From the NCBI GenBank assembly GCA_934085875.1, contig CAKOHQ010000001.1, positions 1 through 58,085 of the forward strand: a stretch of 58,085 nt of DNA, in the 5' to 3' direction. Below the pieces are notes generated by a model, which was not told the DNA's origin, searched no databases, and worked only from the letters and a program-made list of their open reading frames with translations. Position numbers and translations under genes: made by a program. Each line of letters starts with the position of its first letter. Position 1 is the stretch's first letter. This document shows, one piece after another, positions 26,934 to 33,449 of this stretch. This DNA comes from an uncultured Bacilli bacterium (GTDB lineage Bacteria; Bacillota_I; Bacilli_A; RF39; UBA660).

Positions 26934-27010
26934 GCGCTCATAGCTCAATTGGATAGAGCGTTAGACTACGGATCTAAAGGTTAGGGGTTCGACTCCCTTT
27001 GGGCGCACCA
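26934..27010 (+). tRNA. tRNA-Arg (anticodon ACG)
   Basis: Manual cloverleaf: acceptor GCGCTCA/TGGGCGC, anticodon loop CTACGGA, T-loop TTCGACT, encoded CCA. Confidence 0.9.
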
Positions 27011-27036
27011 TTTTTTGTTTTTTATTCATGAGAAAG

Positions 27037-27057
27037 AGTACAATTTGTACTTTTTTT
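27037..27057 (+). terminator. Terminator after tRNA-Arg
   Basis: AGTACA-ATT-TGTACT hairpin plus T7. Confidence 0.55.
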
Positions 27058-27506
27058 ACATATTTGTTTGTGTTTGTTACATAGTATATAATGTATTATA
27101 TTTAATTTTGTATTTTATAATTTATGCTTTGTATATTAAAAATACTTGTATTTTAAATATAATATGATATAATTTAATTGTGATAAGTTTACTTGTCAAA
27201 TTAAAAAGAGATATTTAATCCAGCAAAATTAGGTGTCTCCTTAGTATTTTGTTTTTTGTAAGTTAGCACCTACATATGATGAGTAGGTGTTATTTTTTAA
27301 TCCTTGAAGTTCATTAAACGTTCTAATACTATCAATATTAATATATTTTTTTACATATTTATTTACATTTGTTACATAATATATAATGTATTGTATTTAA
27401 TTTTGTATTTTAAATTTATGCTTTATATATTAAAAATACTTGTATTTTAAATACAATATGATATAATTTAGTTGTGATAAGTTTACTTGTCAAATTAAAA
27501 AGAGAT
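27051..27506 (+). repeat. Two direct copies of about 160 bp (27051-27212 and 27346-27506), period about 295 bp
   Basis: Near-identical strings TTTTTTTACATATTT...TACTTGTATTTTAAATA.AATATGATATAATTTA.TTGTGATAAGTTTACTTGTCAAATTAAAAAGAGATA. Confidence 0.9.
27180..27298 (+). ncRNA. sRNA, family B copy 1 (partner ORF truncated)
   Basis: TTGTAT (27146) - 16 nt - TGaTATAAT (27165-27173). Terminator CACCTAC-N8-GTAGGTG plus a U-run (27268-27298). Contains GGUGUCUCCUUAG (an anti-SD-like UCUCC). Confidence 0.55.
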
Positions 27507-27578
27507 ACAATTTTGGCTTAGATGTATCTCCACAATGTGGGTTGCACCTAATTATATAGGTGCTTTTATTTTTATTTT
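27474..27578 (+). ncRNA. sRNA, family B copy 2 (antitoxin candidate)
   Basis: TTGTAT (27440) - 16 nt - TGaTATAAT (27459-27467). Terminator GCACCTA-ATTATA-TAGGTGC plus a U-run, shared with the convergent ORF transcript. Confidence 0.55.
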
Positions 27579-27652
27579 AATATGATTGCAAGGACTACAA
27601 TGATGAAAGGAATTAATGAAAGTATTAATACAACTGCCATTAAGTATTCCAT
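27572..27652 (-). CDS. 26-aa hydrophobic peptide (Fst-like type I toxin candidate, family B)
   Basis: Product MEYLMAVVLILSLIPFIIVVLAIILK. Transcription unit TTGTAA-17-TATAAT (27782-27754). The 5' UTR segment ACCUCC can pair with the SD GAGGAGGU. The stop lies 8 nt from the bidirectional terminator. No SD sits directly before this ATG; the strong SD serves an overlapping frame starting at 27686. Confidence 0.45.
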   Translation of the reverse strand: MEYLMAVVLILSLIPFIIVVLAIILK

Positions 27653-27884
27653 TTTTTAATGTAGATAATAATTTATATGCTTTCATACCATCACCTCCTC
27701 ATACATATAAATATGTATTGTGGAGGTACACCTATAATTGCATCTCTGATATAATTATATAATATAAAAATCAACATTACAATAAACATCTATATAAAAT
27801 AATAGAAAATGTTTGTTAAAAATAAAATTGTTTTTTTAGTATAAAATTGATTTAATGATGAACACTATATAATGGTGATTTATA

Positions 27885-29198
27885 GTGATAAACGGTTATA
27901 ATATTAGAAAAATAAATGGAGAAGAAATACTTTGTTTGTATTTAGATTTATCTAGCGAGTTTGCTAATTTAGATTCTAAAAAAAATAAAAATTTAAAGAG
28001 TGAAATAAAAAAATATATTAAGAAAAATAAAATAAATTTTAAAGGTGTTAAAGTAGCTTTAGTTATTGGTGGATTTCTTGTTGGTACTGTTATGTTAAAT
28101 AATATAAAACAACCTGATAATAGTTTTAATAATAATAGTATTGTTGCTATAATGAATGAAGTACATGATAATATTACCAGTAATAATACTTTGCAGGAAG
28201 ATGAAACTAAGGAAGAAAATGTTGTTCTTCAAGATAGTGATGTTAATGTAGATGATAAAGTAAATAATGTAGATAACAATACTATTAGTCAAATAAATAA
28301 GGAAGAAGTAAAAAATAGAGATAATGTTGTTAAAGAAAGTAGTAATAAAGTAGAAGTAAAAACAGAAGAAGATATTGTTAAAGAAGTAGTTATTGATAAT
28401 AATATATATGTTAATGTTAGAAGAAATAATGGTAATATAGAAAAATATGAACTTGAAGAATATATAATTGGTGTGGTTGGTGCTGAGATGCCTGCATCAT
28501 TTAATAAAGAAGCGCTTAAGGCACAAAGTGTAGTTGCTAGGACATATGCTTTGAAATCTATAAAAAATAATAAACAATTAACTAGTAATAATAGTACACA
28601 AAATTTTAAAGATAATAATGAATTAAAAAAGATGTGGGGTAGTAGTTATAATACTTATTATAATAAAATAAAAAGTGCTGTTTTAGAAACAAAAGGATTA
28701 TATTTGTCATATAATAACGATTATGTTGATGCAGTATATCATTCTACTAGTAATGGGAATACAGAAGATGCAGTTTATGTTTGGGGTAATAGTGTACCTT
28801 ATTTAAAAAGTGTTAGTAGTGAATATGATAATACTAATAAAAATTATAATAGTACTATAACTTTAACTTATAATGAAATATCTAATAAATTAAAAAATAG
28901 TATTGATAGTAATACTAAATTTAATATTATAAGTAGAACTAGTGGTGATAGAGTAAAAGAAATGGAAATTAATGGAATAACATATAGTGGAGTAGAATTT
29001 AGAAAATTATTAAATTTAAGGTCAGCTGATTTTAGTATAGAAAATAATGGTGCTAATGTTGTTATAAGTACTAATGGATATGGACATGGTGTTGGTATGA
29101 GTCAATATGGTGCAAATGGAATGGCTAATAATGGAAGTAGTTACACTGATATATTATTACATTACTATACTGGTGTATCCATTAAAAATATTTATTAA
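27885..29198 (+). CDS. spoIID: Stage II sporulation protein D (SpoIID/LytB domain)
   Basis: AQSVVARTYAL, YHSTSNGNTEDA and GYGHGVGMSQYGANGMA motifs after an N-terminal TM segment and linker. Confidence 0.8.
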   Translation: MINGYNIRKINGEEILCLYLDLSSEFANLDSKKNKNLKSEIKKYIKKNKINFKGVKVALVIGGFLVGTVMLNNIKQPDNSFNNNSIVAIMNEVHDNITSNNTLQEDETKEENVVLQDSDVNVDDKVNNVDNNTISQINKEEVKNRDNVVKESSNKVEVKTEEDIVKEVVIDNNIYVNVRRNNGNIEKYELEEYIIGVVGAEMPASFNKEALKAQSVVARTYALKSIKNNKQLTSNNSTQNFKDNNELKKMWGSSYNTYYNKIKSAVLETKGLYLSYNNDYVDAVYHSTSNGNTEDAVYVWGNSVPYLKSVSSEYDNTNKNYNSTITLTYNEISNKLKNSIDSNTKFNIISRTSGDRVKEMEINGITYSGVEFRKLLNLRSADFSIENNGANVVISTNGYGHGVGMSQYGANGMANNGSSYTDILLHYYTGVSIKNIY

Positions 29199-32873: not shown

Positions 32874-33129
32874 TTCCTTTATTTTTATATTTAATTATTT
32901 GTCAACCATTTTATATCGTTAACTCAATTTAATTATAATATATTTTTTATTGTTCGACAATAAATACTTGAGATAATTATATTAAAATATGAATATGTAT
33001 TTTATTATAATAAAATAAAATTAATAAAATATAATATTAATGATATTGTTTGACTTTGTATAAGGTCTTATATATAATATCAAGTACACAACTTTATTTG
33101 ATTTTTTAGAATGTTGTGTTATAATTTAA

Positions 33130-33254
33130 GTGATAGGAAGTTCTATCATATAAATATTTTTTGGACACAAAAAGAGTTGCTTAATATTCGTCGTTAAGTA
33201 CTTTCAGTCCAATTTGTTCTGTGGGTACCTAAATGAGTTTGGTACCTGTTTTTT
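33130..33254 (+). ncRNA. sRNA, family B copy 3 (antitoxin candidate)
   Basis: TTGATT (33098) - 16 nt - TGtTATAAT (33117-33125). The 5' end GUGAUAGG is as in the 27-kb copies. Terminator GGTACC-N11-GGTACC plus U6. A second promoter, TTGACT-17-TATAAT, lies at 33050-33078. Confidence 0.55.
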
Positions 33255-33318
33255 AATCCTTGTTGAAAAGTATTTTAAGTAGTATTAATATCACTACTAA
33301 GATTACTAAGTAATCCAT
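33253..33318 (-). CDS. 21-aa hydrophobic peptide (type I toxin candidate, family B)
   Basis: Product MDYLVILVVILILLKILFNKD. GGAAGGA lies 7 nt upstream of the ATG. Transcription unit TTGTAT-17-TATAAT (33429-33401). The stop overlaps the shared terminator. Confidence 0.45.
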   Translation of the reverse strand: MDYLVILVVILILLKILFNKD

Positions 33319-33449
33319 TTATTATTCCTTCCATAGGACCACCTCCTTCCACAAAAGTTGAGAGAGGTTGAGAGTACCTAACTTAAGCAACTCAATTGGT
33401 ATTATAATATATATTATATAATAATACAACGTTAAAATAGAGGTGTTTT

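Follow-up and report, generated by a model that had tools for sequence, protein, structure and literature searches.

A candidate family of type I toxin-antitoxin-like modules encoding very small hydrophobic peptides in a low-GC gut lineage

Introduction

What does the interval between a tRNA-Arg gene and spoIID encode in the genome of an uncultured Bacilli bacterium? The DNA considered here, called the window, is the whole stretch of 58,085 nucleotides (nt) from contig CAKOHQ010000001.1 (GenBank assembly GCA_934085875.1). An earlier note on this sequence had described, beside the tRNA gene, a duplicated small RNA (sRNA) unit converging on a short hydrophobic open reading frame (ORF), and had assigned the ensemble to the par/Fst group among the toxin-antitoxin (TA) systems of type I. 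Two questions follow: is this a type I TA system and, if so, is it of the par/Fst kind? We judge it probable that the locus contains type I TA-like modules belonging to a new chromosomal family, of the Gram-positive kind in which the 3' ends of the two RNAs overlap. The module would resemble that class in its working, and by sequence it is a member of no described family. The anatomy of the sequence, the homology of three paralogues (types T1, T2, and T3), selection on the peptide frame, in silico folds, and a presence/absence polymorphism carry this reading.

A predicted sRNA gene and a peptide gene converge beside tRNA-Arg

The locus is bordered on its left, in all relatives (L001-L044), by tRNA-Arg(ACG) (26934..27010, + strand; found by ARAGORN and Rfam), and on its right by spoIID. 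It contains a direct repeat (27051-27213 and 27346-27507), the copies of which are spaced by 294-295 nt and are 89-95% identical depending on the segment. The repeat of about 160 bp reported earlier was, therefore, borne out. Each copy carries on the + strand the extended -10 promoter TTGTAT-16-TGaTATAAT, read from the sequence at 27146..27173 (sRNA1) and 27440..27467 (sRNA2), and near-identical in the two copies and in the relatives. The consensus promoter scanner listed neither of them, because TTGTAT fits TTGACA at only three of six positions. The window contains exactly two occurrences of the 34-nt transcript start GTGATAAGTTTACTTGTCAAATTAAAAAGAGATA, at 27180 and 27474; it was matched in none of 100 shuffles.

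The predicted type 1 RNA, sRNA1 (27180..27298, + strand, 119 nt, fold z-score -4.3), is made of a 5' hairpin, a hairpin 2 (27208-27239), and a terminator hairpin (27264-27292) followed by U6. The predicted type 2 RNA, sRNA2 (27474..27578, + strand, ~105 nt, fold z-score -3.2), comprises a 5' hairpin (27475-27492), an A-rich linker, a hairpin 2 (27502-27530), a mini-hairpin, and a terminator (27544-27563) with its U-run, which was positive in the terminator scan. Sequence and folds both agree with the promoters, the shared start, and the separate hairpin and U-run that had been proposed for each transcript. The 5' hairpin and linker are variable at only one of 28 sites among 18 haplotypes.

On the − strand, a gene that we designate toxin-2 converges on sRNA2. 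Its promoter, TTGTAA-17-TATAAT (27754..27782), received a scanner score of 10/12. The predicted mRNA is ~251 nt long (27497..27747), both ends being deduced from the sequence: the 5' end would be AGAGAUGC, 7 nt past the -10 box, and the 3' end would consist of the complement of hairpin 2 and then CUCUUUUU. The 5' arm as a whole starts at 27747. Its inner half (27717..27734), which contains the anti-Shine-Dalgarno (anti-SD) motif ACCUCC, belongs to an inverted repeat (I16, 18 nt, 89% complementary); this segment has a same-sense homologue in sRNA2 (27519-27536) and its complement in the 3' arm of the mRNA itself. The SD GAGGAGGU (27700-27693) lies 7 nt ahead of a first AUG, AUG0 (27686-27684), the two spanning 27684..27700, and it pairs with ACCUCC in the minimum-energy fold of the 5' untranslated region (UTR).

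AUG0 opens a frame-0 ORF of 44 amino acids (aa) (MKAYKLL..., 27552..27686), which is a publicly annotated gene call and is not conserved as a protein. The type 2 peptide ORF (27572..27652) encodes 26 aa, MEYLMAVVLILSLIPFIIVVLAIILK, with a grand average of hydropathy (GRAVY) of 2.53, and its frame is +1 with respect to AUG0. The T1 and T3 peptides are its homologues. Its AUG is located 34 nt downstream of AUG0 and has no SD of its own. The − strand promoter, the ACCUCC motif folded on the SD, and the 26-aa ORF at 27652..27572 had all been pointed out before, and scanner, minimum-energy fold, and ORF list confirmed them. The SD itself had been attributed to the hydrophobic ORF; the pairing with ACCUCC stands, and the attribution does not, since the SD sits 7 nt before the out-of-frame AUG0. 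The general anatomy of a type I TA system, with a convergent sRNA and a gene for a small hydrophobic peptide, is supported.

Three diverged paralogues, one of them truncated in the window

Facing sRNA1, only the last ~14 codons of a type 1 peptide ORF are found (..LILIVLERLMNFKD*, 27297..27341, − strand), without start codon, SD, or promoter. The relatives reveal what is missing. L001 has a single unit, in which an sRNA with the hairpin 2 and terminator of copy 1 faces a complete gene with promoter, SD, and AUG0. The complete T1 peptide of L001 and L021 is MEYLILLLLILIVLERLMNFKD, a 22-aa hydrophobic ORF, and the remnant in the window equals its C-terminus. Other relatives (L002, L007, L013, and L017) have a single unit of the copy 2 type. 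Both units are complete and in tandem in L021, where the sRNA1 counterpart again faces a complete toxin-1 gene, and in six further distinct haplotypes (L030-L033, L036, and L037). Aligned with L021, the window lacks 201 bp at junction 27341/27342, that is, the toxin-1 promoter, 5' UTR, SD, both AUGs, and the first codons. From this alignment, module 1 of the window is one that has lost its toxin half by a 201-bp deletion, leaving sRNA1 orphaned, and module 2 is intact.

The earlier description of sRNA1 as an orphan with a truncated partner is supported by these comparisons. Its explanation, a cut made by the duplication junction, is not. Indeed, blastn aligns the T1 unit with the T2 unit over 360 nt at 66% identity (E 3e-31), which makes them old diverged paralogues and no recent duplicate, and the truncation is a separate deletion relative to the seven tandem haplotypes.

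Among 24 distinct tRNA-Arg–spoIID intergenic haplotypes, T2 alone is present in seven, T1 alone in five, and the complete tandem in seven, and the deletion form with an orphan sRNA1, as in the window, in five. A toxin gene lacking its sRNA was found in none of the 24. This presence/absence pattern is TA-like population behavior.

A motif scan located a third paralogue, T3, at 33098-33429, about 6 kb from T2. It lies between a gene for a 202-aa protein and a DUF1294 gene, at an unrelated locus without a tRNA. The sRNA3 promoter, TTGATT-16-TGtTATAAT (33098-33125, + strand), scored 10/12 and has the TG extension. The predicted sRNA3 (33130-33254, + strand) folds into the three-hairpin plan of T1 and T2, with a 5' hairpin, AAAAAGAG, hairpin 2, and terminator. 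The T3 toxin gene occupies 33169..33429 of the − strand, with promoter TTGTAT-17-TATAAT (33429-33401), a predicted mRNA at 33394..33169, a sequestered SD GGAAGGAGGUGG, an out-of-frame AUG0 at 33334, and the peptide ORF MDYLVILVVILILLKILFNKD (33318..33253), which ends just before the hairpin. T3 is 68% identical to the T1 unit over 191 nt (blastn, E 5e-17), and its sequence is 100% identical in seven other metagenome contigs.

The sRNA design, that is, extended -10 promoter, 5' hairpin, AAAAAGAG, hairpin 2, and terminator, is common to the three types. A MAFFT alignment of the three was structurally meaningless, so each type was folded separately and the helices were compared. Across haplotypes, the T2 peptide reads MEYLMAVVLILSLI(P/L)FIIVVLAIILK. 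T2 differs from T1 and T3 by an 18-nt insertion between AUG0 and the peptide AUG, a multiple of three, and the +1 relation of the peptide frame to AUG0 is kept in all three types despite this indel. The functional parts of the locus vary at 0.04-0.15 of sites, compared with 0.23 in the spacer to spoIID. Incidentally, we noticed a T2 sub-lineage (L013-L016), joined by one intermediate, with a weakened SD (GAAGAGG) and an intact peptide carrying A6S and P/L15F.

Could all this be chance in AT-rich DNA, the repeats being decaying leftovers of tRNA-linked insertions and the ORF and hairpins having no function? Base composition gives this idea some ground. Indeed, 30 of 149 short ATG-initiated ORFs in the window have a GRAVY of at least 1.4, and the promoter scan returned 20 sites against 14.3 expected. 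Hydrophobicity alone (GRAVY 1.4-2.7 for the three peptides) is thus weak evidence in 23% GC DNA, and it is conservation that counts. Against chance stand three paralogues built on the same eight-part plan at ~66-68% DNA identity, one of them at an unrelated tRNA-less locus, a detectable selection on the peptide frame, and folds well below those of shuffled sequences. We consider the absence of a functional module highly improbable. The idea that the locus is a spoIID leader or attenuator, or an element integrated at tRNA-Arg, was rejected, as T3 shows the same plan at an unrelated site; modules are, moreover, gained and lost among strains with the flanks unaffected.

Which of the two frames is selected

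Public gene calls annotate the SD-linked frame-0 ORF, in 18 T2 variants (44 aa) and 23 T1 variants on more than 150 contigs. The T1 frame-0 proteins are 45-59 aa long, the longer ones being called from upstream starts. The 21-26-aa peptide is not annotated in the public gene calls of these loci. Taken at face value, the annotation would make the SD-proximal protein, of 44 aa in T2 and 45-46 aa in T1, the true product and the hydrophobic frame a by-product of T-rich sequence. AUG0 does have a strong SD at an ideal 7-nt spacing, conserved in T1, T2, and T3. The segment between AUG0 and the peptide start (AUG+1) is among the most conserved parts and is the least variable of the mRNA, with two of 34 sites variable, and T1 and T3 differ in it by two ATT>ATA changes, both synonymous in frame 0. 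Past the peptide AUG, however, the picture is reversed: the differences between frame-0 variants are radical (C>Y, H>Y, P>T/S, GS>FY, G>R, D>Y, and E>K).

Variable sites were then scored in both frames, the synonymous fraction expected by chance being 0.23 in the +1 frame and 0.18 in frame 0. In T1, each of the three variable sites changes the protein in frame 0 and is silent in the +1 frame. For T2, we relied on loci fetched independently of the T2 sequence, the only subset free of selection through frame 0. There, seven sites vary in the overlap; four are synonymous in the +1 frame and three are conservative (M>I, A>S, and V>I), whereas none of the seven is synonymous in frame 0. Pooling T1 and T2, 7/10 variable sites are synonymous against the expected 0.23 (binomial p ≈ 0.002, non-independence ignored). 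The full T2 set, which is biased, adds the peptide changes L>P, L>S, L>F, and I>T.

The comparison between types points the same way. T1 and T3 peptides share 12 of 21 residues, six of these through synonymous codon changes, whereas their frames 0 have only NG..I in common, and that of T3 stops after 19 codons. Frame 0 shows no similarity between types, and its translation would need passage through the 3' hairpins. The hydrophobic frame, in contrast, survives ~30-35% DNA divergence between T1, T2, and T3. The conservation in relatives on which the earlier proposal had been made to depend was found. Judging from these substitutions, the frame-0 ORF (19-46 aa) is not conserved and the hydrophobic +1 frame is the selected one; a small hydrophobic peptide ORF kept by selection is a generic feature of type I TA systems. 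By the genetic code, the long open frame 0 would be a side effect, because a T at position 2 of a peptide codon is position 3 in frame 0, which bars stops. That the frame-0 protein is the real product appears extremely unlikely to us. The public gene calls take the wrong frame on more than 150 contigs, yielding a 44-46-aa artefact, and the real peptide is, therefore, invisible to protein-based searches.

Predicted RNA ends and a predicted type-specific panhandle

At the hairpin 27544-27563, a U-run follows on the + strand only, the − strand continuing with AACCCACAUUGUGG, and T1, T2, and T3 are alike in that the − strand mirror of the sRNA terminator hairpin lacks a U-run. Further along the − strand, the sequence complementary to sRNA hairpin 2 leads into CUCUUUUU, itself complementary to the invariant sRNA element AAAAAGAG. 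The toxin mRNA probably ends here, at the complement of hairpin 2 and then U5. If it does, sRNA and mRNA would overlap at their 3' ends by 82-96 nt, and by 82 nt in the case of T2.

In each type, and within two distinct T1 promoter settings, the predicted mRNA start, (A/U)GAG, stands right after the -10 box. It opens a 5' end that is a same-sense, type-specific copy of sRNA hairpin 2, reading GAGAUAUUUAAU..AUUAGGUGU in T1, GAGAU(A/G)CAAUU..UAGGUGUACCUCCACAAU in T2, and GAGUUGCUUAA..GUUAGGUACU in T3. Being a copy of hairpin 2, the 5' end is complementary to the mRNA's own 3' end. As a matter of fact, the minimum-energy folds of the full-length T1, T2, and T3 mRNAs each contain a 5'-3' panhandle. 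The duplexes of cognate 5' and 3' arms reach -26.7, -33.3, and -28.0 kcal/mol for T1, T2, and T3, respectively, compared with about -9 to -10 kcal/mol (sd ~3) for shuffles (-10.1 ± 2.8 in the case of T2) and -9 to -22 for non-cognate pairs. The panhandle was observed in 16 of 18 T1/T2 mRNA haplotypes, where the minimum-energy fold joins 24-28 of the first 30 nt to the 3' end. In the two exceptions, the L013-type sub-lineage and one intermediate, no more than the outer ~13 bp is left. The mRNA folds of all three types have the SD paired; the SD hairpin coexists with the panhandle in T1 and T3, and in T2 the anti-SD is split between the SD and the 3' arm. In silico, the modules show both a sequestered SD and a 5'-3' interaction.

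These features bear on the par/Fst assignment, in which repeats at the antitoxin 5' end block toxin initiation and the two RNAs share a bidirectional terminator. As in par (RNA I/Fst–RNA II of Enterococcus faecalis pAD1), the genes are convergent, a 5' stem-loop sequesters the SD, and the ORF for a small hydrophobic peptide ends just ahead of the terminator hairpin, with the stop 8 nt away. In par, RNA II owes its complementarity with the RNA I initiation region to the direct repeats DRa and DRb (PMC4147584). In the present modules, unlike par, the repeats are inverted (I16) and the sRNA and mRNA 5' end are same-sense, in T1, T2, and T3 alike, so that the par layout proposed earlier is not supported; nor is the shared bidirectional terminator, as the − strand hairpin has no U-run in any of the three.

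The name "Fst-like" found no support either. The T1, T2, and T3 peptides, searched with hmmscan against Pfam-A and NCBIfam at E ≤ 10, matched no toxin family, neither Fst nor Hok; the peptide profile had no match among Protein Data Bank (PDB) chains, and Rfam returned no par RNA II match. In all, membership in par/Fst fails on four of the four features tested, namely peptide profile, direct repeats, bidirectional terminator, and RNA II family, and the assignment keeps next to no probability. A pairing in trans between the CUCC of the sRNA and the SD was also set aside, since it would amount to only ~7 bp and the CUCC is buried in sRNA hairpin 2.

Proposed mechanism and points against it

By analogy with characterized systems, we propose the following. 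Each module would consist of two convergent genes, one giving a ~226-251-nt mRNA for a nearly all-hydrophobic peptide of 21-26 aa, the other an sRNA of 105-125 nt transcribed from an extended -10 promoter. Complementarity between the sRNA and the mRNA would be perfect over the final 82-96 nt of the latter, a stretch comprising the stop-codon region and the 3' UTR. Two pairings, of the upstream anti-SD with the SD and of the first 25-30 nt with the extreme 3' end, would keep the primary mRNA inert and stable. The sRNA would form a duplex with the 3' arm of the mRNA, leading to RNase III-type decay and opening of the panhandle, as RatA does on txpA and SR4 on bsrG (PMC4147584). On depletion of the sRNA, the peptide would be made and would insert into the membrane, where it would be toxic. 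This design matches the published hallmarks of type I toxin mRNAs, which are SD/anti-SD pairing, a long-distance 5'-3' interaction, and, in Gram-positive bacteria, an antisense RNA on the 3' side (PMC8594479), and would fit the action of RatA and SR4.

The peptide frame is +1 to the SD-proximal AUG, and its translation is thus probably weak or dependent on ribosomes loading there. The peptide AUG is preceded by AAGGA, 7-8 nt upstream, in T1 and T3, and by nothing of the kind in T2. Codons 2-4 of the peptide ORF read GGA-NNN-YUU-A, conserved in all three types, with the geometry of the prfB shift site. Initiation in the +1 frame may possibly proceed by leader-ORF coupling like that of mok, past a decoy AUG, or by +1 frameshifting. 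A bolder version would have the peptide frame reached only via ribosomes loading at AUG0, by mok-like coupling or by a +1 shift at GGA-NNN-YUU-A, with the sRNA acting mainly to open the panhandle, the 3' arm of which is the very target it is antisense to. The module would then have a double safety catch of a new kind and encode the smallest Gram-positive type I toxins seen so far; we hold this version to be speculative and rather unlikely.

The same features may be read without any toxin. The peptide could be a harmless or regulatory small membrane protein with its mRNA tuned by a cis-antisense RNA, involving no TA pair, addiction, or growth arrest. A conserved hydrophobic frame, a convergent sRNA, and a sequestered SD suit such a protein equally well, and the very short hydrophobic cores of T1 and T3 speak for it. 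Several diverged paralogues in one genome and presence/absence variation among close relatives are, however, typical of TA systems rather than of a housekeeping small protein. Orphan sRNAs occur, whereas orphan peptide genes do not, and the damping is layered, with a sequestered SD, a panhandle, and a strong AUG that is out of frame. A non-toxic role strikes us as a doubtful but serious alternative.

Several observations weigh against the type I TA-like reading that we favor. No SD precedes the peptide AUG in T2, AAGGA is all that stands before it in T1 and T3, and the strong SD serves the other frame. The uninterrupted hydrophobic stretch of T1 and T3 counts only ~13-14 residues, few for a membrane span. 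With 21-26 aa, the peptides fall below the sizes of known Gram-positive type I toxins, which are 28-60 aa (PMC6563280), and the modules show homology to no validated toxin or antitoxin. The promoters, the transcript ends, and the overlap of 82-96 nt are all predicted, and the − strand terminator formed by the complement of hairpin 2 and U5 is weak, G·U pairs becoming A·C mismatches in T3. T2 modules of the L013 type (four loci) have lost the inner half of the panhandle (-9.9 kcal/mol) and kept the peptide, and some changes in the arms within a type are uncompensated. Lastly, most haplotypes were gathered via variants of the frame-0 protein, which inflated the counts of non-synonymous changes in that frame.

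Relation to known type I systems

The closest likeness is to txpA/RatA and bsrG/SR4 of Bacillus subtilis. These have convergent RNAs with a 3' overlap, of ~75 nt in txpA/RatA and ~120 nt in bsrG/SR4 (PMC4147584), to be compared with the 82-96 nt predicted here; an SD held in a stem and a small hydrophobic peptide are further points of likeness. The expected action would also be alike, that is, duplex formation and decay by RNase III, possibly with a change at the ribosome-binding site. Unlike them, the present modules have no sequence homology with either pair, encode 21-26 aa instead of 38-59 aa, do not lie in a recognizable prophage, have the peptide out of frame with the SD-proximal AUG, and form a type-specific 5'-3' mRNA panhandle.

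One Rfam result deserves mention in this respect. T3 (33245-33367, − strand) gave a sub-threshold match to the BsrG family RF01412, at 25.8 bits against a gathering score of 55 (local E 2e-4), and the aligned region comprises the SD hairpin, an AUG, and an A-run before the 3' hairpin. T1 and T2 did not match RF01412, and homology does not place the modules in the BsrG/SR4 class.

In hok and AapA1, pairing of the 5' end with the 3' end locks the full-length mRNA, with the SD sequestered as well (hok, PMC4147584; AapA1, PMC5416894; in general, PMC8594479). The predicted full-length mRNAs of our modules resemble those of hok/mok/sok (plasmid R1) and AapA1/IsoA1 (Helicobacter pylori) in being closed by end pairing with the SD hidden. 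In hok, the overlapping out-of-frame mok carries the usable ribosome entry site, and AUG0 resembles it; we hypothesize that AUG0 and the peptide frame may be coupled in the manner of hok and mok. Those systems are, however, Gram-negative and their antisense RNA acts on the 5' part of the mRNA, whereas here it would act on the 3' arm of the panhandle.

In the very small size and extreme hydrophobicity of the putative toxins, and in having multiple diverged paralogues per genome, the modules are reminiscent of Ibs/Sib and ShoB/OhsC of Escherichia coli. Ibs toxins have 18-19 aa and ShoB has 26 aa. There is no sequence similarity with either, the phylum is different, and Sib overlaps the entire ibs ORF (PMC8594479), unlike the sRNAs described here.

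If the proposal is right, the modules would constitute a new type I TA family in an uncultured, very low-GC gut lineage in which none is annotated, and the lower size limit of Gram-positive type I toxins would move to 21-26 aa. The three diverged paralogues, and strains with one module, with both, or with a toxin-deleted module, form a natural series suited to studies of cognate specificity and of the co-evolution of 5'-3' locking.

Distribution and genomic context

A 24-mer of the sRNA has matches in only three of 185,579 species-representative genomes. All three are metagenome-assembled genomes (MAGs) of uncultured human-gut bacteria (Bacilli or "Tenericutes"), and every match lies between the same tRNA-Arg and spoIID. 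Among metagenome contigs, a scan gave a single contig of 64,191 nt, equal in length to the genome contig behind L002 and probably identical with it. The 761-bp locus had no blastn match in plasmids and phages, and viral contigs gave no match for the sRNA 24-mer or for a degenerate T1/T3 pattern running from the SD over AUG0 to AUG+1. Nothing, therefore, links the family to phages. At gathering thresholds, Rfam recognizes only two tRNAs in the whole window. At E ≤ 10, cmscan of 27000-27850, which covers T2 and the T1 remnant, returned only chance-level matches of the snoRNA or miRNA type, and an E-value search of the complete T1 module of L001 also returned chance matches only.

The window is chromosomal and very AT-rich (~23% GC) and encodes, among others, PNPase, a class-V aminotransferase, a PGA_cap protein, and SpoIID. 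The terminator hairpin of tRNA-Arg (27011-27057) varies in stem and loop among relatives and is always kept as a hairpin; it reads AGAGTACAATTTGTACT in the window and AGTACTGTTGTACT or AGTACTTCACTGTACT in other relatives. The left flank of tRNA-Arg is variable (L017-L020, L027, and L041). The PGA_cap gene is absent in several loci, and in L041, a phosphoketolase (XFP) gene takes its place. This side of the tRNA gene seems prone to rearrangement.

As for the host, the MAGs of L001-L003 bear the label "uncultured Bacilli" or "uncultured Tenericutes". The window nevertheless has a SpoIID gene (27885-29198), and in relatives, a GPR-type spore protease is encoded beside the SpoIID gene. With ~23% GC and SpoIID, the host looks like a member of a spore-forming lineage, not a mollicute.

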